Source of the DNA: Occultella glacieicola
GTDB lineage: Bacteria > Actinomycetota > Actinomycetes > Actinomycetales > Beutenbergiaceae
Direction of reading: 5' to 3'
Assembly (NCBI RefSeq): GCF_004353825.1
Contig: NZ_SMNA01000004.1
Coordinates: 496,001 to 519,769, forward strand
DNA: 23,769 nucleotides
Under the pieces are notes generated by a model that was not told the DNA's origin, did not search any database, and saw only the letters and a list, made by a program, of their open reading frames with translations. Position numbers and translations under genes: made by a program. Positions 1 to 23,769 of this stretch are shown here, piece after piece (the stretch's first letter is position 1; each line of letters opens with the position of its first letter).

Positions 1-406
1 CGAGCGGGACGCCGGCCTCCTCGAGGAGCCCGATGCTTCGGCGTTGCTCGGCGCCGAGGATCCAGTCCGGGTCCGGCCGGTCGTGGCTGAGGTTGCGGAC
101 CCCGACGAATCCGGCGGTCGCCGCCAGGCGCGGCAGTTCCCGCGCCACGGTGTCCGGATCCTCCAGCGGCAGGTAGCACACGGCTCCGGCCAGGCGGGGC
201 TCGGCCGCGACCAGCTCAAGCAGGTAGGTGGTCTCGTCGAGGGTCTCGTCCGCCTGCACCAGGATGGCACGCTCCACGCCGTAGGGCGCCAGCGCCGCGA
301 GGCCCTGCTCGAGGGGGTGGTCCGACCGCAGCGGCTCGGGGGCGCCGTCGAGCCATCGATACCGGGACCGGGACCGGTCCCAGACGTGCAGATGGGTATC
401 GATCAC
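1..406 (-). CDS. Amidohydrolase_2-family protein, L-fucono-/L-galactono-lactonase-like (3' end runs off the window)
   Basis: Not in the ORF track; translated by hand from GTG at 406, which overlaps the MaoC stop (GTGA). Reads MIDTHLHVWDRSRSRYRWLDGAPEPLRSDH...GVERAILVQADETLDETTYLL...FVGVRNLSHDRPDPDWI. The IDxHxHxW, LVQA and GVR motifs are typical of sugar lactonases in the amidohydrolase superfamily. Confidence 0.85.
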   Translation of the reverse strand, partial: MIDTHLHVWDRSRSRYRWLDGAPEPLRSDHPLEQGLAALAPYGVERAILVQADETLDETTYLLELVAAEPRLAGAVCYLPLEDPDTVARELPRLAATAGFVGVRNLSHDRPDPDWILGAEQRRSIGLLEEAGVPL

Positions 407-873
407 ACGTGTTCACCTCGCTTGTTGACGAGCTTGTTGACGACGTACAGGTGCACCAGGGACAGCACGGTATCGCCGTGCTGGTTGGTGACCGTGACCC
501 GCTCGTCGACGCGGCCGAGCTCGGACCGGCGCGGGTGGTCGGTCACCTCCACGATCTCGGCCTCGACCGTGATCGTGTCGCCCAGGAACACCGGCTTGAC
601 GAACCGGATCCGGTCGTACCCGTAACTCATCGCCTGCGGGTTCACGTCGCCCGCGGTCATGCCGACGGCGACCGAGACGATCAGGGTGCCGTGCGCGATC
701 CGGCCGGCCAGCCCGGCCTCCTCCACGCACCAGCGCTCGTCCATGTGGTGCGGGAAGAAGTCGCCGGTCTGCCCGGCGTGCAGCACCACGTCCGCCTCGG
801 TGATCGTGCGCCCCAGGGTGCGCCGCACCTCCCCGACCTCGTACTGCTCGAGGTACCGGTCAACCACCTGCAT
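403..873 (-). CDS. MaoC-family (hot-dog fold) dehydratase / R-specific enoyl-CoA hydratase-like
   Basis: 156 aa with GRTITEADV, hydratase motif TGDFFPHH (D-x4-H), IAHG and RFVKPVFLGDTI. GGGAG RBS upstream; 14-nt overlap with the upstream gene. Confidence 0.9.
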   Translation of the reverse strand: MQVVDRYLEQYEVGEVRRTLGRTITEADVVLHAGQTGDFFPHHMDERWCVEEAGLAGRIAHGTLIVSVAVGMTAGDVNPQAMSYGYDRIRFVKPVFLGDTITVEAEIVEVTDHPRRSELGRVDERVTVTNQHGDTVLSLVHLYVVNKLVNKRGEHV

Positions 874-1978
874 GTGCCACTCCCAACGCTGTGAACATCC
901 GGTCCAGGTCCTCCAGCACCGGGGCGGCCGGCTCGCGGCCGGTCAGACCGCGGTGCACGCGCTCGCAGGCCGCGTCCTGCACGGCCATGTAGCCGGGGTG
1001 CTGTGGCCGCAGACTCGCCAGCTCCAGGGTGCGGCGGGTGTCGGCGAAGAATCCGCCGGTCAGCTCGTGGAGGCCCGCATCGGACCAGGCGGCCACGTGC
1101 CCGGGCTGCCCGCCGCCGAGGGCGTACACGCCCCGTTGGGCCTCACCGGAGGCGACCCAGGTCGCGAACGCGATCGCCTCCGCGGGGTGCTGGGTGCGAG
1201 CGGACACGGCCAGCCCGGCGCCGCCGAGCATCGAGCCACGGGGCTCCCCGTCGATCTCGGGGATGTCCCTCCAGTGCACGGGGTGGTCGCGGAAGCCCGG
1301 CCGTGCGTAGTTGCTGTACCCGTAGAGCAGGGGGGCGTAGGCCCACCGGTCGGAGGTGGCCAGCCGGTCGGCGGTCTGGATCGGGTTCTCACCCAGGCAG
1401 GCCTCGGGCACGAGGTCGCGCAGCCGCCCGAGCAGGTCCCACGCCCGCGCGAAGGCGTCCGGGTCCGCGAAACCGGACCGTCCGGCGTCGGCGCCCTGCA
1501 GCCCGGAGGTGAGGGTGAACGTCGAGGCGAAGGCGTCGATCGGCTTCGCAGGCCAGAGCACCGCTCCGGCGCGGGCGAGGTCGAGGACCTCCGGCCACGT
1601 CCGCGGCGGCGCCGGCAACAGGTCGGGCCGGTACGCCGCGACCTGCGCGGCGGCGTCGATCGCCAGGCCGTACTGTGCGCCGTCCCACCGGTAGCTGGAG
1701 AAACTGCGACCGACGAACGCGGCCGGCCCCTCGCCGTCGGGCAGCGCCGCCAGCAGCCCGGCCCGGGCCGCCTGCGGGATGTGCGGGTGATCGATCACGA
1801 GCAGGTCGTAGGACTCGGCCAGCGACTCCAGGCCCTGGTCGGCGAACGCCTGCAGGGAGCGGACCTCCCAGGTGACCTCGACGTCGTGGCCGGCGGCGGT
1901 GTGGGCGGCGGCGGCCGCCACGACGCTGTCCCGGCCACGCTCGTGGTCCCACGTCATGCCGCGCAGCCGGACGGTCAC
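860..1978 (-). CDS. Sugar-ABC solute-binding-protein-fold protein lacking signal peptide and lipobox (372 aa)
   Basis: Coding part of track ORF 860..2704. Likely start is GTG at 1978, overlapping the CoA-transferase stop (GTGA). Sequence [15 protein letters not shown]...RSLQAFADQ...YDLLVIDHPH...QYGLAIDAAAQVAAYRPDLL...PRTWPEV...LGGAGLAVS resembles family 1 SBPs. The in-frame stretch upstream of 1978 is low-complexity shadow of the CoA-transferase. Confidence 0.8.
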   Translation of the reverse strand: MTVRLRGMTWDHERGRDSVVAAAAAHTAAGHDVEVTWEVRSLQAFADQGLESLAESYDLLVIDHPHIPQAARAGLLAALPDGEGPAAFVGRSFSSYRWDGAQYGLAIDAAAQVAAYRPDLLPAPPRTWPEVLDLARAGAVLWPAKPIDAFASTFTLTSGLQGADAGRSGFADPDAFARAWDLLGRLRDLVPEACLGENPIQTADRLATSDRWAYAPLLYGYSNYARPGFRDHPVHWRDIPEIDGEPRGSMLGGAGLAVSARTQHPAEAIAFATWVASGEAQRGVYALGGGQPGHVAAWSDAGLHELTGGFFADTRRTLELASLRPQHPGYMAVQDAACERVHRGLTGREPAAPVLEDLDRMFTALGVAHAGG

Positions 1979-3180
1979 GGCACGCTCCCGGCCACCGGCT
2001 CCCGGTTCGGCGCCAGCTCCTCGCGGACCCGGTCGGTGTCCGCGCCGAGCAGTGGTGCGGCGTCGCCGCCCCAGAGCCGCTCGCCGTCGAGGCGGATCGG
2101 CAGCCGGGTGGTGGTGACCTCGGTGCGCGTACCGTCCGCCTCGTCGCGCCGCAGCGTCTGCACCATGTCGATCGCCCGGAACCCCTCGTGCGCGACGAGT
2201 TCGTCGACGGTGTGCAGCGGCGCGCACCACACGTCGGCGGCATCCAGGACCTCGAGCCAGGCCGCGGTGCTGCCGGTCCGCAGCCGGGCGGCGAGCAGCT
2301 CCTCGATCCGGCCGCGCTGCTCCCACCAGGTCTCCGGGTCGGTCAGCTCGACCAGCTCGGGGATCTCCAGCAGGGCGCCGAGCTGGGGCACCGGGTTCAT
2401 CGCGATCGACAGGTACCCGTCGGCGGTCGGGTAGACGCCGTAGGGGGCGGGCAGGTAGGTGTGCGCGCTGTGCGGGCCGCGGGGCCGCGGGGTGACCGCC
2501 TCCGGCTGCGTCATCCGCACCGAGAGCATCTCGAACTGCAGGTCGAGCATCGCCTCCAGCAGGGACGTCTGCACCTGACCGCCGACTCCGGTGCGCAGCC
2601 GCCGCAGCAGCAGAGCCGTGATCCCGTGCGCCAGGTGGCAGGAGGCCAGGTGGTCCGCGATCGAGATCCCGAACGGGCTGGGGTCCGGGTCCGCCTGCAG
2701 CCACGGCAGGCCGGAGATCGACTGGGCGAGCAGGTCCTGGCCGGGGCGGTCACGCCAGGGCCCGTCGTCGCCGTACCCCGTTATCGAGCCGTAGACCACG
2801 CCGGGGTTGACCTCCCGGACCGTCTCGTAGTCCAGGCCGAGCCGGGTCATCACCCCGGGACGGAAGTTCTCCACGACCACGTCGGCCTGCTCCACCAGTT
2901 CCCGCACGAACGCGAGCTGCTCGGGGTCCTTGAGGTCCGCGGCCACGCTCTGCTTGCCGCGGTTCATCGCGTGGAAGGACACGGTGTCCTCGCCCGCCCG
3001 GGCCCCGGCGAAGGCCAGGCCACGGCCGATGTCCCCGATGCCCGGGCGTTCGATCTTGATGACCCGCGCGCCGAGGTCGGCGAGCCGCAGCGCGGCCACC
3101 GGCCCGGCGAGGAACTGGCTGAAGTCGAGGACCAGGAATCCGTCCAACGGGCGGGGCAGGCCCGGCTGGGAGGCTGTCAT
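1975..3180 (-). CDS. Family III CoA-transferase (CaiB/BaiF)
   Basis: Motifs [53 protein letters not shown], the catalytic Asp region SIADHLAS, and C-terminal [20 protein letters not shown] overlap with the GH95 stop. Confidence 0.95.
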
Positions 3181-5687
3181 GAGGGTCGCTCCTGGGAGAG
3201 GTCTGAGGCGGTCAGGCGCACGGTCGCACCGGGGGGTAGCTCGAGCAGACGTTCATGCGCCCCGTCCACCACCCGGAGCCGGCGGGTGGCGGGGGCATCG
3301 GAGGTGATCCGGACCTCGGTGAGCCGGCCACCGCGCCAGCTCAGGTCGACCTCCAGGTCGCCGCGGGCGCGCAGGCCGCGGACGTCGCCGTCGGGCAGGT
3401 CCGGCGGGAGCGCGGGCAGCAGGTCGAGGTACCCGGCGTGCGACTGGAGCAGGCACTCGGTGAGTGCGGCGACCACGCCGAGGTTGCCGTCGATCTGGAA
3501 CGGTGGGTGCGCCGAGAAGAGGTTGCGGTAGAGGCCGCCCCGCCACCGACCACCGGTGGGGCCGGGCTCGATCTCCACGTTCCGGCGCACGAACAGGTCG
3601 AGGAGCCTGCCCACGGCCTCCGGTTCGCGCAGCCGGGCGCGCATCGCGAGCTTCCAGGCGAGCGACCAGCCGGTGCCCTCGTCGCCACGGGCGTCCAGGC
3701 TGCGACTCGCCGCCGCGGCGTGGAGGTCCGACGGCGGCACGTCGGTCGGGTGGATGCCGACCAGATGGGCGATGTGTCGGTGGTGCGGGTCCGCCATCTC
3801 CTCGACGTCGCCCCACTCGCGCAGCAGGCCGTCGGGGTCGACGCCGACCGACGCGATCCGGGGCAGCGCCGCCTCGGCCTCGGCGCACAGCGCCTCGCTC
3901 CCGGCGCGCAGCCCGTACGTGTCCCCCAGTCGCAGCAGCGAGCGGAGCAGGTGCCGGGACAGCTCGAGGTCCATCGTGGCGTCGGCGGCCACCGAGCTGG
4001 TGCGGTCGGTGCCGGGGGCCACGAACCGGTTCTCCGGTGACGTGGACGGGGACGTGCCGAGGGTGCCGTCCGGCCGTGGCTCCAGCCAGTCGAGGACGAA
4101 CCTGGCCGCGCCGCACAGGGTCGGCCAGAACCGCCGGGCCGCCTCGGGGTCGTGGCTGAAGGTGACCCGGTCGACGAGGTGGGAGGTCAGCCAGACCCCG
4201 GCGAACGGCCAGAATGCCCAGGCCGGGTCGTGGGTGCCGTCGCCCATCGGGTCGGCGAACGCCCAGATGTCGCTCGCGTGGTGCGCGACCCAGCCCGAGG
4301 AGCCATAGATCCGCGTGGCGGGTTCCCGGCCCCGCTCGGCGAACGCCTCGACCAGGTCGAACAGCGGCTCGGCGCACTCGGGCAGGCTGGTGGTCTCGGC
4401 GAGCCAGTAGTTCATCTCGAGGTTGATGTTCATCGTGAAGTCCGAGCTCCACGGTGGTTGTCGCTGCTGGTTCCAGATCCCCTGCAGGTTCGCCGGTGTC
4501 CCACCCGGGCGCGAGCTCGAGATCAGCAGGTAGCGCCCGTACTGGAACAGCAGCGCGACCAGCTCGGGCGCGGCGCCGGCGTGGGCGCCGGCACCGTCGG
4601 CGGCCGCGTCGAGCAGGGCGTCGGTATCGGCCGCGGCACCCGGGGCCGGTTCGGGGGCGACGCCGAGCCGCAGCTCGGCGCGGTCGTAGAGCGCCCGATG
4701 GGCCGCGACGTGGTCGGCGTGGATCCGTTCGGTCCCGGCCGCGGCGGCGGTCCGGGCGAGCTCCCGGGCGCGGGCAAGCGCCGGCGCGACGTCGGCTCCC
4801 GGATCGTGCCCGAGCCGCGTGAAGGTCGTCCGCACGGCCAGGACCAGGGTGGCATCGCCGTCGACCTCCACGACCACGCCCGCGGGCGTGGCGCGGGTGC
4901 GCACGCCGTCACCGACGCCGCGGAGCACGACGGCGGCCTGCACGCCGCGCGGGTCGCTCGCCCACCGCACGGGGTCGGCTTCGCGCTGGTAGGCGGGCAC
5001 GACGTCGTCCGGCGCCCGCACGACGGCCCAGGCCTCGGCCCCGTCGGCCCCGGCCTGTTCCAGGCGCAGTGGGGAGTCGAGCACGAACGAGACCGGTCGC
5101 CCCGAGGCGGAGACCTCGAGCACCAGGACCTGGTGGGGGGCGCTCACGTACGCGCGTTGGGACACGGCGGCGGCCCGGGTCCAGGCCGTCGCGGAGCGCA
5201 GGTCGAGGCCGCGGGCATACCCGGAGGCCGATCCGGGCGTGTCGACGTGGTCGCGTTCCGGGATCACCTCGGCCTGCGGCGCCGGCTCGGGGGTGGGAGC
5301 GCCCACCGTGCGGCGCAGCCTCGCCAGCGGCTGGAAGGACTGCGGGTAGGAGTGCTGCAGCGCCTGCAGCGCCTCCTCGGCGCCGACGTGGTCACCGGCC
5401 GCGATCGCCGCCCGCGAGGCCGCGATGGCGGCCCGGGCTGCCTCGGCGGTCACCGGGTGCTCCGCCGGTCGGCGCGGTGGTCCGGACCAGACCGAACCCT
5501 CGCTGAGCCAGACCAGCTCCTCCTGCTCGCCTCCATATACCATCGCGCCGAGCCGGCCGTCGCCGAGTGGCAACGCCTCGACCCACTCGGACGCGGGGCT
5601 GGCGAACTCGAGCCGGTGGACCGGATGGGCCGACGGCGTCGCCCGGCTCGGCGAGACCTCGGACGAGAACACTGACGACACCGTCAC
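3177..5687 (-). CDS. Glycoside hydrolase family 95 (alpha-L-fucosidase / alpha-L-galactosidase), no signal peptide; exact start uncertain
   Basis: Motifs [72 protein letters not shown] and [16 protein letters not shown]. Confidence 0.93.
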
Positions 5688-5690
5688 CTC

Positions 5691-5706
5691 GGAGAATCGA
5701 TTTTAC
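5691..5706. promoter_or_regulatory. LacI-family operator-like palindrome at the start of the leftward operon
   Basis: GGAGAATCGATTTTAC, centred on CG with AAT-CG-ATT arms; lies between the predicted leftward promoter and the GH95 start. Confidence 0.55.
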
Positions 5707-5718
5707 TGAGTGAGAGAC

Positions 5719-5749
5719 ACCATAGACGGTCCGAGGGCATGGCTGGCAA
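5719..5749 (-). promoter_or_regulatory. Putative housekeeping-sigma promoter for the GH95 operon
   Basis: Minus strand reads TTGCCA-N19-TATGGT; the spacer is slightly long. Confidence 0.4.
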
Positions 5750-5824: not shown

Positions 5825-5838
5825 GACAAACGATTCAC
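5825..5838. promoter_or_regulatory. LacI-family operator-like site over the predicted transcription start of ABC importer 1
   Basis: GACAAACGATTCAC (reverse complement GTGAATCGTTTGTC); shares the TGAATCG half-site with the site at 9795. Confidence 0.55.
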
Positions 5839-5948: not shown

Positions 5949-6923
5949 ATGACGCAGGCGCCACCCCTGCCGGCCCTGGCGGCGACCACCAAGCCGCCGG
6001 TCAGGCAGAAGCCGCGCCCCGGGCGTCTGCGCAGATCGGTCCGACGGCACTGGCAGCTCTACGTGCTGGTGCTGCCGCCGCTGGTCTACTTCGCACTGTT
6101 CAAGTACGTGCCGATGGCGAATGCGGTCATCGCGTTCAAGGACTACAACGTGATCGCCGGCATCTGGGCGAGCCCGTGGGTGGGCCTGGAGCACTTCGAG
6201 CGGTTCTTCTCGAACCCGATGTTCACCACGGTGGTCAGCAACACGTTCCTGCTGAGCCTGTACGCGCTGATCGCGAGCTTCCCGATCCCGATCATCCTCG
6301 CGCTCGCCCTCAACGAGGTCCGGTCGCGGTTCTTCAAGCGCACCGTCCAGATGGTCACGTACGCGCCGTACTTCATCTCCACCGTCATCGTCGTCTCGAT
6401 GGCGATCCTGATCCTCTCGCCCCGCATCGGTCTGATCAGCGAGTTCACCGGGTTCTTCGGGCTGCCGACCACCGACTATCTGGCCCAGCCGGACTTCTTC
6501 CGCCATGTGTACGTCTGGACCGAGGTGTGGCAGACGGCCGGCTACTCGGCGGTCATCTACCTCGCCGCGCTGGCCGGGGTCGACCCGGGCCTCTACGAGG
6601 CGGCCAAGGTCGACGGCGCGAACCGGCTGCAGAAGATCTGGCACGTGGACCTGCCGAGCATCATGCCGACGGTGGTCGTGGTCCTGATCCTCTCCGTCGG
6701 CAGCATCATGGCCGTCGGCTTCGAGAAGGCGTTCCTGCTGCAGAACCCGCTGAACCTGTCGCAGTCGGAGATCATCGCCACCTACACCTACAAGATCGGC
6801 ATCCAGAACGCCGACTTCAGCCTCGCGACCGCCGTCGGGCTGTTCAACTCGGTCATCAACCTCGTGCTGATGCTCAGCGTGAACGCCGTGTCCAAGCGTG
6901 TGACGGGAAGTGGGCTCTGGTGA
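5949..6923 (+). CDS. Carbohydrate ABC transporter permease 1 (LplB-like)
   Basis: Coding part of track ORF 5739..6923; likely ATG at 5949. Hydrophobic helices, SPWVGLEHF, and EAA loop LYEAAKVDGANRLQKIWHVDLP. Confidence 0.93.
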   Translation: MTQAPPLPALAATTKPPVRQKPRPGRLRRSVRRHWQLYVLVLPPLVYFALFKYVPMANAVIAFKDYNVIAGIWASPWVGLEHFERFFSNPMFTTVVSNTFLLSLYALIASFPIPIILALALNEVRSRFFKRTVQMVTYAPYFISTVIVVSMAILILSPRIGLISEFTGFFGLPTTDYLAQPDFFRHVYVWTEVWQTAGYSAVIYLAALAGVDPGLYEAAKVDGANRLQKIWHVDLPSIMPTVVVVLILSVGSIMAVGFEKAFLLQNPLNLSQSEIIATYTYKIGIQNADFSLATAVGLFNSVINLVLMLSVNAVSKRVTGSGLW

Positions 6924-7837
6924 GCATCGCAACGAGGGTCCGCGGGGCCGGCCGACCGACCCGGGTGCGGGAGTCCCGGGTGGACCGGTTCTTCCTGGTC
7001 GGCGTCTACATCCTGCTCGTCACGTTCCTGCTCGTGGTGCTGCTGCCGCTGTGGTACATCGTGGTCAGTTCCTTCAGCAGCCCCGCGGCGGTGTCCGCGG
7101 GCCGGGTCTTCCTGTGGCCGGTCGACTTCACGCTCCGCGGCTACCAGGTCGCGCTGAGCAGTCCGCAGATCCTCACCGGATTCGCGAACTCGATGATCTA
7201 CACGGTCGTGGGCACGGCCATCAGTGTCACCCTCACCGTGATGCTCGCCTACCCGCTCTCGCGCGCGGACTTCGTGGGACGCAAGGTGCTCACCGGCGCC
7301 GTCGTGTTCACCATGCTGTTCGCGGGCGGGCTGATCCCCACCTACCTCGTGGTCCAGGCGATGGGGATGCTCGACACCCGCTGGGCGCTGCTGATCCCGA
7401 ACGCGGTGGCCGTGTGGCCGGCGATCCTGGCGATCACGTACTTCCGGACCGCGATACCCGACGAGCTGCGCGAGGCGGGTGAGATCGACGGGGCGAGCGA
7501 CCTGCGGATCCTGTGGAAGGTGGTGCTGCCGCTCGCCGGGCCGATGCTCGCCGTGATCGCACTGATGTACGCGATCGTGCAGTGGAACTCCTACTTCGAC
7601 GCGTTGATCTACCTGCGCGACGACAGCCTGTACCCCCTGCAGTTGGTGCTCCGGAACATCCTGATCCTCAACAACGACGCCGGCGGCGATGCGACCTCGG
7701 CGCTGGAGCGGCAACAGCTCGCGAACCTCCTGAAGTATTCGCTCATCGTGGTCTCCACGGTCCCGATGATGCTGATCTACCCGTTCGTGGCCCGTTACTT
7801 CACCAAGGGCCTGCTCCTGGGGGCCGTCAAGGGCTGA
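6920..7837 (+). CDS. Carbohydrate ABC transporter permease 2 (LplC/MalG-like)
   Basis: GTG at 6920 overlaps the upstream stop (GTGA). EAA-like loop IPDELREAGEIDGAS, QWNSYFDALIYL, and C-terminal FTKGLLLGAVKG. Confidence 0.93.
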   Translation: MSIATRVRGAGRPTRVRESRVDRFFLVGVYILLVTFLLVVLLPLWYIVVSSFSSPAAVSAGRVFLWPVDFTLRGYQVALSSPQILTGFANSMIYTVVGTAISVTLTVMLAYPLSRADFVGRKVLTGAVVFTMLFAGGLIPTYLVVQAMGMLDTRWALLIPNAVAVWPAILAITYFRTAIPDELREAGEIDGASDLRILWKVVLPLAGPMLAVIALMYAIVQWNSYFDALIYLRDDSLYPLQLVLRNILILNNDAGGDATSALERQQLANLLKYSLIVVSTVPMMLIYPFVARYFTKGLLLGAVKG

Positions 7838-7926
7838 CCCCGGCCCCTGAGGCGCAGCCGTCCCACCCCACAACCATCGAGCCGTCGAACCCGGCGGCAC
7901 CCCCTCACGACGAAGAGAGGCACCAC

Positions 7927-9579
7927 ATGACACGCCGCAACAGGACCGCGACGGCGATCGTCGCCGTCGGCGGGCTGGCCCTCACCCTCGGCGCCTGCGC
8001 GCCGCAGGCCGCGGAGCCCGTCGACGACGGCGTCATCACCATCTTCAGCCAGCAGGGCGCGGACTCGGATCTCAACACCAACGAGTTCACCCTCTTCCTC
8101 GAGGAGGAGTTCGACGTCGACCTGCAGTTCGAGACCACCACCTGGGATGCCGGCGCCGCGTCCGAGGCGCGCCAGATCGCCCTGGCGAGTGGCGACTACC
8201 CGGACGCGTTCCTGTTGATCCCGTGGGTCGACCAGTTCACCCAGGCCGAACTGGTCAAGTTCGGCGAGCAGGGCGTGGTCCGGCCGCTGAACGACCTGCT
8301 CGAGGACAACGCACCGAACCTGGTCGCGGCGTGGGAGGAGACTCCCGAGTGGGAGCAGCTCGCGACCGCACCGGATGGCAACGTCTGGGGTCTGCCGCAG
8401 TGGAACGACTGCTTCCACTGCACCTACCCGTCGAAGCTCTGGATGAACTCCGCATGGCTGGACGCGGTCGGGATGGAGCAACCGACGACCCCGGAGGAAC
8501 TCACCGCGGTGCTGACCGCGTTCCGGGACTCCGACCCGAACGGCAACGGCCAGGCGGACGAGGTCCCGCTCTCCGGGTCGCCCGGCGCGAACTCGGTGCT
8601 GCCGTTCCTGATGAATCCGTTCGTCTACGTGCCCTCCTCCACCACCGACGGCTCGATCCCGGCCACGCTCGCACTCGATGGCGACACGGTCACCCTGCAG
8701 GCCACCCTCGACGGCTGGCGTGAGGGGCTGGGCTACATGAACTCCCTCTACGAGGAGGGCCTGGTCGACGAGGCGGCGTTCACGCAGAACCAGGACGCGC
8801 TGCTGGCCCTGGGCGACATCGCCGGGGACCCGATCCTCGGGGCCGCGACGGTCGGCCACCCCGGCGTGTTCGTCACCATCGGGCAGGAGGACGGCCGCGA
8901 CGCGCAGTACAACCCGGTCGCCCCGCTGGCCGGTCCGAACGGGTCGCCCGCCTCGGAGCTGCTCTCGTCGGTGCCGGGCGGAACGCTCGTCATCACGAAC
9001 AACGCCAGTGACGCCGACGCCGCGAGCCTGGTGCAGATCGTGGACTGGATGATCGACTACGACAACCACCTCCGGGCCGAGTGGGGCGAGGAGGGTGTCG
9101 CCTGGGACTACCCGGCCGAGGGTGACGTCGCGCTCGACGAGTCGCTCGAGCCGCTGTACCTGCGGCACCGGCTCAGCGGCGCCGAGGCGACCGAGAACGC
9201 CAACGTGGCCTGGGGTCCGCTCGCGCAGTACTACGGCAGCACGGAGTTCCGTGGCGCACAGGTGGTGTCCGAGGACATCTACGACCTGTCCGGGTACGAG
9301 CGTCGCCTGTTCGAGGCCACCGAGCCGTACGCCGAGAACAGCCCGACCGAGGCGTTCCCGTACTGGAACCTCTGGATCCCCGAGGAGGACTCCGCCGAGC
9401 TGGCGACGGCGCAGACCAACGTCGAGTCGCTGGTGCTGCAGGCCAGCGCCGAGTTCGTGACCGGCGTGCGCGACATCGACAGCGACGCGGACTGGCAGGC
9501 CTTCCAGGACGCGCTCGTCTCGAGCGGGAGCGACCGGTACCTGGAGATCTACCAGGCAGCCTGGGACGCCTCGAACTGA
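7927..9579 (+). CDS. Oligosaccharide ABC transporter substrate-binding lipoprotein (LplA-like, 550 aa)
   Basis: ATG at 7927 after GAGAGG. Signal peptide MTRRNRTATAIVAVGGLALTLGAC ends in a lipobox Cys. Contains LASGDYPD and DPNGNGQADEVP, the latter resembling a Ca-binding loop. Confidence 0.92.
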   Translation: MTRRNRTATAIVAVGGLALTLGACAPQAAEPVDDGVITIFSQQGADSDLNTNEFTLFLEEEFDVDLQFETTTWDAGAASEARQIALASGDYPDAFLLIPWVDQFTQAELVKFGEQGVVRPLNDLLEDNAPNLVAAWEETPEWEQLATAPDGNVWGLPQWNDCFHCTYPSKLWMNSAWLDAVGMEQPTTPEELTAVLTAFRDSDPNGNGQADEVPLSGSPGANSVLPFLMNPFVYVPSSTTDGSIPATLALDGDTVTLQATLDGWREGLGYMNSLYEEGLVDEAAFTQNQDALLALGDIAGDPILGAATVGHPGVFVTIGQEDGRDAQYNPVAPLAGPNGSPASELLSSVPGGTLVITNNASDADAASLVQIVDWMIDYDNHLRAEWGEEGVAWDYPAEGDVALDESLEPLYLRHRLSGAEATENANVAWGPLAQYYGSTEFRGAQVVSEDIYDLSGYERRLFEATEPYAENSPTEAFPYWNLWIPEEDSAELATAQTNVESLVLQASAEFVTGVRDIDSDADWQAFQDALVSSGSDRYLEIYQAAWDASN

Positions 9580-19975: not shown

Positions 19976-20497
19976 GTGGAACCCAACGAGATCGCCGAGA
20001 TCCTGAACCGCCCGCTGAGCCAGGAGCTCCTGGCCCGTGACCTGCTCCGGATGGCCTACGTCGCGAAGGACGGCACGCCGCGGAACATCCCGGTCGGATT
20101 CGCCTGGAACGGGACCGAGATCGTCGTCTGCACCCCCACGAACGCGGCGAAACTGGTGTCCCTGCGGCACAACCCCGCGGTGGCGCTGACGATCGACACC
20201 GAGGTGCACCCGCCGAAGATCCTGTTCATCCGCGGCCGGGCCGAGCTGGACGAGGTGGAGGGCATCCCGGAGGAGTACCTCGAGATGAACGGCAGCTACC
20301 GGATGACCCCGGAGCAGCGGGTCGAGTGGGAGGCCGGGGTGCGAGACCTCTACGACCGGATGGTCCGGATCGTCATCACCCCGACCTGGGCCAAGCTCAT
20401 CGACTTCGAGACCACCCTGCCGAGCGCCGTCGAGGAGCTGATCCAGCGGCAGGCCGAGCGGCAGGGCGCCTCGAACCAGCCGCGCGCCGCCGACTAG
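19976..20497 (+). CDS. Pyridoxamine 5'-phosphate oxidase-family (split beta-barrel flavin/F420-binding) protein
   Basis: AAGGAG RBS and GTG start. Motifs MAYVAKDGTPRNIPVGF, AKLVSLRHNPAVALTID and IRGRAE. Confidence 0.85.
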   Translation: MEPNEIAEILNRPLSQELLARDLLRMAYVAKDGTPRNIPVGFAWNGTEIVVCTPTNAAKLVSLRHNPAVALTIDTEVHPPKILFIRGRAELDEVEGIPEEYLEMNGSYRMTPEQRVEWEAGVRDLYDRMVRIVITPTWAKLIDFETTLPSAVEELIQRQAERQGASNQPRAAD

Positions 20498-21144
20498 CCG
20501 CGCGCCAGTACCTCGGCGGCCCGGCGGACACCGAGCTCCGGGCTGGTCAGGACCGGCACGTCCACGCTCACCGTCGCGGCCGCCCCGGCCATCGAGGCCT
20601 GGGCCAGCACCACCACGTCCGCCTGCGCGGCCCACTCGACGATCGCGGCGCCGACCAGTTCGTCGTGGCGGGCCCGGTCACCACCGGAGACCGCCTCGAA
20701 CGCGCCCGCCACGATCACCTCGTGCAGTTCCGGCGACCGCGCGGCCAGCTCGGCGCGCTCACGCAGCAGGGCCGCCGTGGGGGCCAGCGTGGTGGGCAGC
20801 GTCGCGATCACGGCGATCCGCGCCCCGGCACCGATCGCCTCGTCCGCCATCGCCTCGTCGATGCGCAGCACCGGCACGCCGAGCTCGTCGGCCAGGCCGG
20901 CCGCGTACCCGGAGATCGAGGAGCAGGAGAACATGATCGCGTCGGCCCCGGCGGCCCGCGCGGCCCGGCCCAGGTCGAGCAGGCGCTCGCGGACGCCGGT
21001 GCCCTCGGCGTCCCGGCCGAGGTCGGCGACGATCTTGTCGTCGAGCAGGTGATGGGCCTCCACCCCCGGCAGGTGCCTGGCGGCGAGCTCGGCGATCGTC
21101 GGGATCACGACGGCGCCGGTGTGGATGAACGAGATTCGGGTCAT
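20494..21144 (-). CDS. Asp/Glu/hydantoin racemase-superfamily protein (single-Cys type)
   Basis: Motifs ISFIHT, GADAIMFSCSSI, VPVLRIDEAMA, IATLPTTLAPT, DVVVLAQASMA and PVLTSP; GGAGG RBS. Confidence 0.85.
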   Translation of the reverse strand: MTRISFIHTGAVVIPTIAELAARHLPGVEAHHLLDDKIVADLGRDAEGTGVRERLLDLGRAARAAGADAIMFSCSSISGYAAGLADELGVPVLRIDEAMADEAIGAGARIAVIATLPTTLAPTAALLRERAELAARSPELHEVIVAGAFEAVSGGDRARHDELVGAAIVEWAAQADVVVLAQASMAGAAATVSVDVPVLTSPELGVRRAAEVLARG

Positions 21145-21187
21145 GGTGGAGCCTCCGTGCTTTCTGGGCCGTGTCGGGAGGTGCCGG

Positions 21188-23170
21188 TCACCGCAGCCGC
21201 GGCAGCCAGACGGACATCTCGCCGGGGCCGCGGTTGGCCCAGCGGGCGTAGGGGACGAGGGTCAGCGGCAGCGGGGCCGGGTCCTCCTCGCGCAGCTCCC
21301 CGTAGAGCGAACCGGCCGCGACCGGGCTCGGGATCCGGACCGCGTCCGTGTGCAGGGTGACGTAGTCGGTGAAGATGCCCTCGCCGTCGGCCTCCCGCCA
21401 CCGTGCACCCGCCGGGACGTACACGGACTCCACGCCCACGCCGTCGGGCAGGTCCGCGCTCTCCACGCAGTACACGAGGGGCCCCCGCACGATCGCGACC
21501 TGGTTCGTGGCCTCCTCCACGAAGTGGTGGGCGACCATGGTGCGGGTGCGCAGCGGGATCTCGACGAGGACCTCGGAGTCGGACCAGGTGCGCTCGATCA
21601 CCGCGTAGCCGCCCTCGACGGCCGAGGTCGCCTCGCCGTCGACGGCCACCGTGGCCTCGGGGGCCCAGCCCGGGATCCGCACGCGCAACTGCGCCCGCAC
21701 CGGCCGCTCGGCGCGCACCCGGATCCGGACGGTCCCCTCGCTCGGGTAGCGGGTGGTCTGGGTGACCTCGACGGGCACGTCACCGACGGTGAGGGCCGCG
21801 GTGCCGGGCAGGAACTGGTGCACCCAGAGCGCATCGGGGGAGCGCGAGTACACGTAGTACGGCAGTTCCGCGATCACCCGGGCGATGTTCGGCGGGCAGC
21901 AGAAGCAGTTCGTCATGTACTCCTGGCGCAGCCGGTTGTCCGAGGCCGGGGGCGTGGTCCGCTCCGGGTCGCCGGCCCGGCGCATCTGGTAGGGCAGGTC
22001 CCGGACCGCGCGCAGCGGGTTCGTGTAGAAGTAGCTGGACCCCTCGGCGCCGATCATCGCCGGCAGCGAGTTGAACAGGACCCGTTCGATCTCGTCGGCG
22101 TATTTCGCCTCGCCCGTCAGGGCGAGCATCCGCCAGGACCACAGCACGAACCCGAGGGTCGCGCAGGACTCGTTGTACGCCGTCGTCTGCGGCAGCTGGA
22201 ACGGCCGCCCGTACGCCTGGTGCGTCTTCGTGATCGTCGAGTAGTCCTGCCCGGCGTCCGGGGAGGCGCCGTCGTACACGGCGCCGCAGCCGCCGGTCAG
22301 GTACAGCTTCGCGGAGACCACGTCCTGCCAGAGCGCCTCGACGGCCTCACGGAAGGCGGGATCGCCGGTCTCCAGGGCGTAGTCGGTCATGCCGGCGAAC
22401 AGGTAGTTCGCGCGGACGGCGTGCCCGGTGGCCACGTGCTGGTCCTGCACGGGGTGGACGTCCTGGTTGTCGTCCCCGCCGGCGCCGCCCTTGCCCCCGT
22501 GCAGCTCGAGCAGGCGGCGGGCGAGGTCGAGGTAGCGGGAATCGCCGGTGCTGCGGTAGACCTCGATCGTGCCCATGTAGTGCGACGGGCAGATGTTGCA
22601 GTCGGCGAGCGCCTCGGGCTGCTCCTGCGCGGCGCGGACCAGGAAGTCGGCCGCGCGCAACGCCGCCGCGTAATAGGTGTCCGAGCCGGTGAGCCGCTTG
22701 TGCAGGCAGCCGAGCGTCATCAGGTGCCCGAGGTTGTAGGTCTCGAACTGGAGCCGGTCGGTCAGCGGGCGGACGTCCTCGCCGCGGTTCGCGGCGATGG
22801 TGGTCCGCGTGTGCACGTACCCGTCCGGTTGCTGCGCCGCGACGATCGCGTCCGCGGCCTCGGCCACCCGGTCGGCCAGGCCCGGGGCGTCCGGCTCGGC
22901 GACGACGGCGGCCTCGAGCCACTTGTACAGGTCGCCGTCCATGAACGGGGCGGCGTGGTGCTCGCCGGTCGCGCGGCCGGCCGCGATCCGGAAGTTCTCC
23001 ACGGCGTGGGCGATCTCGGGGTCGAACATCAGGTCGCCCATCGAGGGGATCGTCACCTCGAGCGCGTTCGTGCGCAGTCGCCCGAGCGGTCCGTGGCCGT
23101 CCAGGGAGACCGACGACGGCGGCAGGGACGTCATCACGGCGTGCGGGCTGGCGGTGGTGTCGGTCAGCAT
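21188..23170 (-). CDS. Glycoside hydrolase family 127, aceric-acid-hydrolase-like (660 aa)
   Basis: Likely ATG at 23170, overlapping the kinase stop, with GGAG upstream. Motifs FMDGDLYKWLEA, YNLGHL, GHAVRANYL, YDGASPD...HQAYGRPFQLP, YNESCA, CFCCPPN and RGPLVYCVE. The GH127 family call is firm; the specificity is inferred. Confidence 0.9.
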   Translation of the reverse strand: MLTDTTASPHAVMTSLPPSSVSLDGHGPLGRLRTNALEVTIPSMGDLMFDPEIAHAVENFRIAAGRATGEHHAAPFMDGDLYKWLEAAVVAEPDAPGLADRVAEAADAIVAAQQPDGYVHTRTTIAANRGEDVRPLTDRLQFETYNLGHLMTLGCLHKRLTGSDTYYAAALRAADFLVRAAQEQPEALADCNICPSHYMGTIEVYRSTGDSRYLDLARRLLELHGGKGGAGGDDNQDVHPVQDQHVATGHAVRANYLFAGMTDYALETGDPAFREAVEALWQDVVSAKLYLTGGCGAVYDGASPDAGQDYSTITKTHQAYGRPFQLPQTTAYNESCATLGFVLWSWRMLALTGEAKYADEIERVLFNSLPAMIGAEGSSYFYTNPLRAVRDLPYQMRRAGDPERTTPPASDNRLRQEYMTNCFCCPPNIARVIAELPYYVYSRSPDALWVHQFLPGTAALTVGDVPVEVTQTTRYPSEGTVRIRVRAERPVRAQLRVRIPGWAPEATVAVDGEATSAVEGGYAVIERTWSDSEVLVEIPLRTRTMVAHHFVEEATNQVAIVRGPLVYCVESADLPDGVGVESVYVPAGARWREADGEGIFTDYVTLHTDAVRIPSPVAAGSLYGELREEDPAPLPLTLVPYARWANRGPGEMSVWLPRLR

Positions 23171-23652
23171 CGGGCTGGGGTCTCCATCGGGTCGCTGGTG
23201 GCGGAGGTGGTCGTCGCCCGGCCGAGCCGGACGTCCTCGAACAGGTCGGGGTGGCCCATCTGGCCGCCCTTGAGCACCATCTCGGTGCCGTCGTACGCGG
23301 CGCCGGGGGCGTGCGCGCGGCACAGCGCCACATTGCCCCACGGGCGAGACTCGATGCCGAGGGCGCCCACGCCGAGCGCGCGCAGGAGGTGCCCGCTGGT
23401 GTCGCCCCCGCAGACGACCAGCCGGGTGCGCGGTGCGGCGGACAGCCGGGCCCGGCCCACCTCCGCAAGGCCCGCGACCACGTCGTCGGACGACACGGAC
23501 CGGCCGCCCGGGGTGCTCGAGTGGAACACCGTGCTCGCGCCGCCGACATGGGCGGCGATCGCCCGCTCGACGGCGTCGGCCTCGCGCAGGTCGAGCGCCG
23601 TCCAGCCGGCGGCCACGGCCGCCCGGATCTGGTCCCAGGTCCGCCCCGACCG
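23164..23652 (-). pseudogene. C-terminal nucleotide-binding domain of a DUF1537 four-carbon acid-sugar kinase (3-oxo-isoapionate kinase-like), separated from its N-terminus
   Basis: Reads RSGRTWDQIRAAVAAGW...RLVVCGGDTSGHLLRALG...EMVLKGGQMGHPDLF. Similarity ends at about 23652, where the conserved SGS motif should precede. The frame stays open upstream but reads as antisense of plus-strand coding sequence. Confidence 0.75.
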
Positions 23653-23713
23653 GCGCGCGGAGTCGGTGCCGGAGCTTTCCGCGGCCCTAGCCGCGTTCGG
23701 GCCGCCCCGATGA
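23651..23713 (+). pseudogene. Orphan 3' end of a gene, possibly a RuBisCO-like protein C-terminus
   Basis: RRAESVPELSAALAAFGPPR-stop resembles the PELxxALxxFG tail of RuBisCO-like proteins and is coupled by ATGA to the kinase start. At only 20 codons the identity is tentative. Confidence 0.45.
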
Positions 23714-23769
23714 GGTTCGGCTTCTACGGCGACGACTTCACCGGATCGGTGGACGCGCTGCTGCAGCTG
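23710..23769 (+). CDS. N-terminus of a DUF1537 four-carbon acid-sugar kinase (runs off the window)
   Basis: Not in the ORF track. Reads MRFGFYGDDFTGSVDALLQL, containing the diagnostic DDFTG motif. Confidence 0.85.
   Translation, partial: MRFGFYGDDFTGSVDALLQL

Follow-up and report, generated by a model that had tools for sequence, protein, structure and literature searches.

A conserved CoA-transferase/MaoC/solute-binding-fold module and its possible role in the catabolism of 2-O-methyl-L-fucose

The window analyzed here is a 23,769-nt stretch of an Occultella glacieicola contig (labelled G000:C18 here). It harbors an operon encoding a GH95 glycoside hydrolase, a family III coenzyme A (CoA)-transferase, a protein with a solute-binding-protein (SBP) fold, a MaoC-type dehydratase and an amidohydrolase, which is extended beyond the window by a Gfo/Idh/MocA dehydrogenase (Gfo). 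Three of these components, the CoA-transferase, MaoC and the SBP-fold protein, form a module conserved over many phyla. On balance, our analysis favors the reading that the operon is an undescribed catabolic route for 2-O-methyl-L-fucose (MeFuc), a sugar of the pectic polysaccharide rhamnogalacturonan II (RG-II), which is present in all primary plant cell walls.

The operon and its conserved core

All five open reading frames of the operon exist, and their junctions are exactly those claimed in an earlier note on this DNA, namely ATGA, GTGA, a 14-nt overlap and GTGA in order from GH95. The Gfo gene joins the amidohydrolase gene through a one-base overlap (TGATG) as the sixth member, and a LacI gene converges on it outside the window. 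Each of the five proteins in the window scores above the Pfam cut-off for its own family.

Two sets of loci were used to follow the operon across bacteria. The MaoC-anchored set comprises the best 80 of 97 loci, mostly from Actinomycetota. The SBP-anchored set comprises the best 80 of 571 loci (55 of these at least 15 kb) and spans Proteobacteria, Planctomycetota, Acidobacteriota, Chloroflexota, Bacillota and Verrucomicrobiota; some genomes are common to both. The CoA-transferase is found in 79/80 and the SBP fold in 77/80 of the MaoC-anchored loci, which argues that the grouping is not due to chance. LacI (68/80), the amidohydrolase (63/80) and Gfo (50/80) are also frequent, and GH95 (15/80) is a local first gene outside the conserved core. 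In the SBP-anchored loci, the CoA-transferase (74/80), MaoC (70/80) and Gfo (51/80) are accompanied by a RhaM-type mutarotase in 28 loci and a crotonase in six. Five of the ten SBP-anchored loci without MaoC contain a crotonase in its place, supporting an enoyl-CoA step. The SBP-fold gene usually adjoins the CoA-transferase gene; the sole apparent fusion of the two, among 55 adjacent pairs, turned out to be a run of N. Very small freshwater-type actinobacterial genomes retain the module as well (Table 1), which suggests that such bacteria meet the free sugar as a genuine resource in their environment.

Association with RG-II and fucose genes

MeFuc is the probable substrate, as judged from the genes that accompany the module. 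PMC12282258, where PDB 9HYQ was deposited, states that alpha-1,2-linked MeFuc is released by no known family other than GH139 (BT0984), and residue numbering shows that 9HYQ is BT0984. In Rufibacter, the module lies directly after a DUF5703 gene, with one short open reading frame between them, and the product of this gene matches 9HYQ at E 5e-272. This GH139 keeps all listed key residues of BT0984 (W162, W403, W490, Q411, N412, E561, N639, E641, W683, D723 and N729). A search with the Rufibacter SBP-fold protein gave 70 loci (67 from Bacteroidota; 44 of the 70 at least 15 kb), among which GH139 is located within 10 kb in 13, together with GH138-like (12), GH106 (7) and GH137 (6) genes. The transporters RhaT (36) and FucP-type MFS (16, two FucP above cut-off) are also found in these loci.

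In a sample of 351 Bacteroidia genomes, the SBP fold is present in 10, GH139 in 15 and aceric acidase in 14. SBP fold and GH139 occur together in nine genomes, always on one contig with 15-91 kb between them; once the centre genome is left out, Fisher p is 5e-12, kin not being independent. These overlaps, with gene maps for nine of the ten carriers, tie the module to RG-II loci and do not pick a particular sugar. The sugar is picked by the first 50 of 67 Bacteroidota carriers, which contain GH139 in 46 cases (one being the query's own genome), GH140 in 42 and aceric acidase in 30. GH139 is kept by 19 of the 20 carriers without aceric acidase, the discordant pairs being 19 to 3 in its favor, and by all eight that lack both aceric acidase and GH140.

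Moreover, the module is embedded among L-fucose genes. On pSymB of S. meliloti, Gfo (43%) and MaoC are surrounded by an ABC system, a mutarotase, SDR, FAH and an annotated L-fuconate dehydratase. The transferase-SBP pair is found at a distance of about 18 kb. The module and fucose genes of Roseibium form one contiguous stretch. We take the S. meliloti locus to be SMb21101-21113, with fitness phenotypes, and its Gfo to be annotated as L-fucose dehydrogenase on the basis of fitness data, neither of which was found in the literature searched. The S. meliloti 1021 record seems to contain a frameshift in the transferase gene, and the R14 record one in the MaoC gene (L161 and L163, two high-scoring segment pairs each); these lesions may be real or sequence errors. 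Taken together, GH139 co-occurrence, the FucP/RhaT/RhaM neighbors and the fucose genes support the 2-O-methyl-fucose form of the 2-O-methyl-sugar hypothesis put forward in the earlier note.

B. thetaiotaomicron, used as a control, contains both GH139 and aceric acidase, and a control search found no family III CoA-transferase in it. According to the 2026 preprint 10.64898/2026.03.13.711244, this bacterium secretes MeFuc and the disaccharide MeXyl-Fuc, no pathway being known, and neither it nor any other gut microbe has a confirmed MeFuc pathway.

Several observations weigh against MeFuc. Aceric acidase co-occurs almost equally with the module in the 351-genome sample (8/10 SBP carriers). Four of the 50 Bacteroidota carriers lack GH139, and the carrier counts used different thresholds per marker in genomes of which many are incomplete metagenome-assembled genomes (MAGs). 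Nine of the 13 neighboring GH139 proteins belong to a divergent clade of about 31% identity in which the Trp triad is incomplete, and one more is without W162; PMC12282258 reports one GH139 that was inactive. No GH139 was found in the O. glacieicola genome (100% complete by markers) or in four of four other non-Bacteroidota carriers searched. Among 301 Actinomycetes, the SBP fold is present in 14 (including this genome and one unpublished) and GH140 in five, with GH140 in only one of 13 carriers besides this genome. In addition, the tree joining the actinobacterial and Bacteroidota SBP proteins is a quick one with weak deep branches. The earlier note proposed an undescribed CoA-dependent pathway for a rare plant sugar, with sugars of RG-II as candidates. 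Comparative genomics supports this idea, the substrate evidence coming from Bacteroidota, where 9/10 module carriers of the 351-genome sample have GH139; the RG-II link is weak in Actinomycetes, the window's own class. The actinobacterial carriers could be scavengers of free sugar or users of another substrate.

The operon GH95 likewise keeps the Asn and His motifs, mapped by motif, that are reported to block MeFuc binding. It has the GH95 domains and the catalytic Glu/Asn/Asp motifs (N420, N422, E552, W674, H727 and D733), the N-x-N and His motifs are kept in 14/14 homologues where aligned, and it shows neither the Gln-Asn pair nor the missing His residues that mark GH139-type MeFuc hydrolases. 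Because these canonical active-site motifs are kept, release of MeFuc is probably the work of another enzyme; the operon GH95 looks like a canonical member of the alpha-L-fucosidase/L-galactosidase family.

A proposed route for MeFuc

All chemical steps of the proposed route, including formation of 2-methoxy-enoyl-CoA and release of methanol, are deduced from protein families and gene context. Gfo would oxidize MeFuc to the lactone, which the amidohydrolase would open to 2-O-methyl-L-fuconate. The family III transferase would convert this acid into its CoA thioester, making the proton at C2 more acidic in a substrate whose normal 2-OH is blocked, MaoC would take off the C3 hydroxyl to give 2-methoxy-enoyl-CoA, and CoA would be handed to the next incoming acid. 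Given MeFuc as the substrate, these three CoA-dependent steps are quite likely. Hydrolysis of the enol ether, for which the cytoplasmic SBP-fold protein is the candidate, would yield methanol and 2-keto-3-deoxy-L-fuconate, the latter entering the ordinary L-fucose route. L-fuconate and (R)-3-hydroxyacyl-CoA, the substrate class of MaoC, agree in the sense of the C3 hydroxyl, whereas D-xylonate has the opposite sense.

The transferase function is predicted from the PF02515 domain, which far exceeds its cut-off of 23.3 bits, and from D176, which is kept in 272/272 aligned matches and which we equate, by its motif, with the Asp of formyl-CoA transferase. The protein has family III features and forms its own subfamily with a GQDLL motif. 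It falls below the cut-offs of all seven NCBIfam equivalogs compared (Frc, CaiB, YfdE, succinate-glutarate and mesaconate types), the best score being 205 against 750 bits required. AMACR-type racemases carry a catalytic His ahead of the conserved Asp (GHD), and this position is Gln148 in 273/274 cases. MaoC contains the Asp-x4-His dyad (D38/H43) of (R)-hydratases and is closest in PDB to 4FFU from S. meliloti (E 1e-44). H43 is found in 212/264 matches; the other 52 represent a second paralogue without the catalytic His, which hints at a heterodimer in which one subunit is silent. For the amidohydrolase, the lactonase assignment of the earlier note stands at the family level, as the best model, L-fucono-1,5-lactonase NF052480, scores 149 against a cut-off of 400 bits.

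The SBP-fold protein

The SBP-fold protein is the most distinctive part of the module. Its AlphaFold2 model (pLDDT 94.5) has a MalE-type fold, with SmoF (7ofy) as the best Foldseek match (TM 0.83, 20% identity) and 6dtq as the best VIA match (Z 36.2, rmsd 2.8, 357 aligned). Identity to the fold matches listed is at most 21%. The family is large, with at least 831 clusters (50% identity) at E<=1e-30 and 6506 matches at E<=1e-20 among 8000 candidates scored. An N-terminal motif was found in 133 of 150 homologues examined (no motif match in 17), and it begins within 20 residues of the start in 130 of the 133 (median residue 8), leaving no room for a signal peptide. The protein itself shows no CUT1 signal peptide or lipobox, which both transport SBPs of the window do have. 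No cognate ABC permease is found among the recurring gene clusters of the 70 mostly Bacteroidota loci, and where ABC systems are present, they bring their own signal-bearing SBP. Across 139 sequences with a mean column identity of 34%, the polar residues H12, R14, R40, D63, H64, D108, Y221, Y224 and Q291 are invariant or near-invariant, and their place in the fold suggests that they line the ligand cleft.

With somewhat less than even confidence, we regard this protein as a candidate enol-ether hydrolase. It is also possible, though short of probable, that MeFuc is the substrate and the SBP fold serves as a non-enzyme carrier for the acid, enol ether or thioester, methanol leaving spontaneously or elsewhere. 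The top fold matches, which are all binding proteins or MBP fusions, agree with such a role, as do the usual abutment on the transferase gene and the S. meliloti pair lying apart from Gfo and MaoC. The fold matches listed include no enzyme, which still leaves room for one, and a Protein Atlas look-up gave SBP clusters only. Some Bacteroidota, moreover, have two transferases together with a second signal-less SBP fold, seemingly of an unrelated family (Table 1). The conserved polar residues argue against a carrier, and so does the persistence of the SBP fold in five MAGs in which no transferase was found.

These MAGs carry a CoA-free variant of the locus. In a quick tree of 95 rows, the SBP proteins from small MAGs of Sediminibacterium type fall within the Bacteroidota CoA clade (SH-aLRT 98-99), and their loci contain two UxuA-type dehydratases with PhyH-like, enolase, RraA and mutarotase genes. 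In Bacteroidota MAGs with this variant, two PhyH-like dioxygenases are located beside the SBP fold; a similar UxuA variant is found in Microvirga. A CoA-transferase search in six such MAGs found none in five, positive controls having worked, and all five of these transferase-less MAGs contain GH139. The persistence of SBP fold and GH139 without the transferase indicates that the SBP fold goes with the sugar and not with CoA, the dehydration machinery being swappable. This agrees with a hydrolase whose substrate is the shared enol ether in free form. For those MAGs, the PhyH-like genes also admit oxidative demethylation as a reading. The broader proposition of a widespread, O2-independent methyl-ether cleavage by elimination, with a hydrolase evolved from a MalE-type sugar-binding protein, is doubtful at present.

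Alternative substrates

A different O-methyl or 2-substituted sugar (2-O-methyl-D-xylose, 2-O-methyl-L-rhamnose, 2-O-methyl-L-galactose or a 3-O-methyl sugar), or a substrate that depends on the subfamily, is unlikely. MeXyl-Fuc is likewise without a known pathway according to 10.64898/2026.03.13.711244. Variants of the module with a crotonase or with the second, His-less MaoC, a variant in fucosidase/sulfatase loci (Persicobacter) and actinobacterial carriers without RG-II markers would also fit such substrates. The tracking of GH139 and the FucP/RhaT/RhaM neighbors speak against them. The C3 sense of D-xylonate is wrong for MaoC, making the 2-O-methyl-xylose of the earlier note less likely, and CoA would not be needed for methanol to leave a 3-O-methyl acid, which counts against a 3-O-methyl substrate. 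A link between the crotonase variant and GH141/2-O-methyl-xylose was rejected, since the Streptomyces beta-helix protein concerned gave a single weak PDB match, which was not to GH141.

It is improbable that the operon is a CoA-dependent bypass for one of the unmodified sugars L-fucose, L-galactose or D-arabinose. Such a bypass would account for the embedding in fucose clusters, for the GH95 and GH29 neighbors and for the L-fucose dehydrogenase annotation of the S. meliloti Gfo. The operon contains no enolase-family fuconate dehydratase. Against the bypass, the standard dehydratase (at least 50% identity) is present in 38/80 MaoC-anchored loci, and a homologue is encoded elsewhere in this genome (C18:365294, 62%). 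Bacteroidota carriers, in addition, have a separate above-cut-off L-fucose dehydrogenase, and the GH139 link would be left unexplained.

Aceric acid, the other hypothesis of the earlier note, is very improbable as substrate of the CoA module: the GH127 most similar to aceric acidase (640 bits against a cut-off of 950) lies 15 kb from the operon and co-occurrence reaches 8/10 in the 351-genome sample, but 20 of the 50 Bacteroidota carriers lack aceric acidase, GH127 is near the module in just 2/70 Rufibacter-query and 4/80 MaoC-anchored loci, and it has its own conserved OiaK-like/RuBisCO-like/racemase-like gene set.

This set forms a second candidate pathway at the other end of the window, which probably serves aceric acid. 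RuBisCO-like, kinase and racemase-like genes recur with a bile-acid-type symporter gene in Bacteroidota RG-II loci of two genomes, G232 and G088, and in G088 they adjoin GH127; the G232 copies are below the OiaX/OiaK cut-offs (499 and 378 against 700). The B. thetaiotaomicron control search found no RuBisCO-like protein. Bases 23644-23769, the final 126 of the window, repeat C7:829-954 in inverted orientation (98%). The contig thus seems to end in an assembly fold-back, with contig C7 probably continuing the second operon.

Relation to known systems

The oxidative L-fucose pathway shares with the operon a dehydrogenase, an amidohydrolase lactonase and a mutarotase, often in the same locus as the module, and the predicted product 2-keto-3-deoxy-L-fuconate would feed its SDR/FAH or aldolase steps. 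In this pathway, an enolase dehydrates the free acid; in the module, dehydration is predicted to take place on a CoA ester, with MaoC as the enzyme, and a signal-less SBP fold is added. CaiB/CaiD, FldA/FldBC, HadA/HadBC and the itaconate system Ict/Ich use a family III transferase to recycle CoA for a single (de)hydration step. The substrates of these systems are non-sugar, and the module proteins score far below the CaiB (62 against 413 bits) and RipB/Ich itaconyl-CoA hydratase (41.5 against 340 bits) NCBIfam models. We know of no member of the Cai/Fld/Had-type systems that uses an SBP fold. Beta-methylmalyl-CoA dehydratase (8HGN), the third-best PDB match of MaoC (E 1.7e-16), is likewise a hot-dog enzyme that dehydrates a 2-substituted 3-hydroxyacyl-CoA, but it is double-domain, acts in carbon fixation and handles a 2-methyl instead of a 2-methoxy group. 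The CUT1 sugar-binding proteins (MalE, SmoF and TMBP) have the same fold as the SBP-fold protein, which differs by its lack of an export signal, and the Bacteroidota loci have RhaT/FucP symporters rather than ABC permeases. By analogy, the module resembles an oxidative fucose pathway in which a Cai/Fld-type CoA cycle replaces the enolase, and it appears to be a member of neither.

The nearest sugar-acid precedent appears to be the deoxyribonyl-CoA route of Klebsiella michiganensis, proposed from genetics in the part of 10.1101/205583 available, in which a sugar acid unsuited to ordinary dehydratases is also handled as a CoA ester. That route, as described there, uses a CoA-synthetase, a dehydrogenase and a thiolase, with no MaoC and no SBP fold. 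The module is not mentioned in the available parts of PMC9007349 (including a search of its supplement) and 10.1101/2024.04.15.589591. In agreement with the earlier note, which knew of no established pathway, no description was found in the literature searched, most subscription journals being outside the search; the module is real, conserved and apparently undescribed.

Genomic neighborhood and regulation

An operator-like site directly upstream of GH95 is kept in 10 aligned intergenic regions, and we take it to be of LacI type. Its pattern has 2 matches against 0.04 expected, both representing one near-palindromic site that is the source of the pattern itself. The divergent ABC transporter is likely the importer for the cluster, and its arrangement with the operon is the same in close relatives. 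An RG-II island with GH140 apiosidase, GH137-like, GH138-like, GH42, GH2, GH78 and GH127 genes is located within about 25 kb of the operon on the same contig.

A 692-aa hydrolase encoded divergently from LacI is near the module in 6/80 loci. It has no Pfam, NCBIfam or PDB match, is placed in a GH65/GH95-like family by the Atlas, and is a candidate for an uncharacterized RG-II linkage; weighed as a stand-in for GH139, it gave a pairwise match of only E 0.005. Further left, a probable apiose locus contains the GH140 apiosidase, and a transketolase-like gene follows beyond it.

Table 1 Features of the window, its surroundings and related loci (window positions unless a contig or locus is named)
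Feature	Position or locus	Strand	Remarks
GH95	3177-5687	minus	836 aa; PF22124 423 bits
Family III CoA-transferase (predicted)	1975-3180	minus	401 aa; PF02515 316 bits
SBP-fold protein without signal (MalE/SmoF fold)	860-1978	minus	372 aa
MaoC-type (R)-hydratase/dehydratase	403-873	minus	156 aa; PF01575 77 bits
Amidohydrolase-2, lactonase-like	1-406, continuing beyond base 1 to G000:C18:495546	minus	286 aa
Gfo/Idh/MocA dehydrogenase	G000:C18:494461-495546, outside window		sixth operon gene
Conserved operator-like site, AAAATCGATT core	5692-5706		directly upstream of GH95 start
Promoter-like boxes	5719-5726 and 5744-5749		near operator-like site
Second operator-like copy	5825-5838		precedes divergent ABC operon
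Divergent sugar ABC transporter	5949-9579	plus	two permeases and lipoprotein-type SBP bearing signal
PPOX-class, possibly F420-dependent oxidoreductase	19976-20497		below NCBIfam cut-offs; no link seen
Second candidate pathway	20494-23643 and G000:C7:1-2132	minus (window part)	RuBisCO-like protein (on C7), OiaK-like kinase, aceric-acidase-like GH127, Asp/Glu-racemase-like
Region between LacI and Gfo	L001:15940-16460		about 520 bases; imperfect G-rich direct and inverted repeats
692-aa hydrolase	L001:12747-14825 (G000:C18:490747-492825)		divergent from LacI
Probable apiose locus	L001:5981-9547 (G000:C18:483981-487547)		xylose-isomerase-like gene, DeoR-type regulator, GH140 apiosidase
CoA-free variant loci	L203, L204, L207, L220, L197, L202; L166		two UxuA-type dehydratases around same SBP fold
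Second signal-less SBP-fold family	L164:21574-22701; L171, L277, Bryobacterales loci		in some modules with two CoA-transferases
Second MaoC paralogue, without catalytic His	e.g. L172, L173, L256, L067-L070		52 matches
Module in very small actinobacterial genomes	L242 (= G614), L103, L125		L242 from a 1.5 Mb genome

Implications

If the proposed route is correct, 2-O-methyl-L-fucose would gain its first pathway; with the SBP fold as its hydrolase, a new enzyme family of at least 831 clusters, now annotated as transport proteins, would come with it. The question is testable in tractable strains such as S. meliloti 1021, of which one component has already been crystallized without a function (PDB 4FFU). 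The route would also point to methanol of microbial origin and to cross-feeding between degraders that excrete the sugar and bacteria that consume it. Moreover, thousands of "extracellular solute-binding proteins" would be re-annotated as cytoplasmic metabolic proteins.

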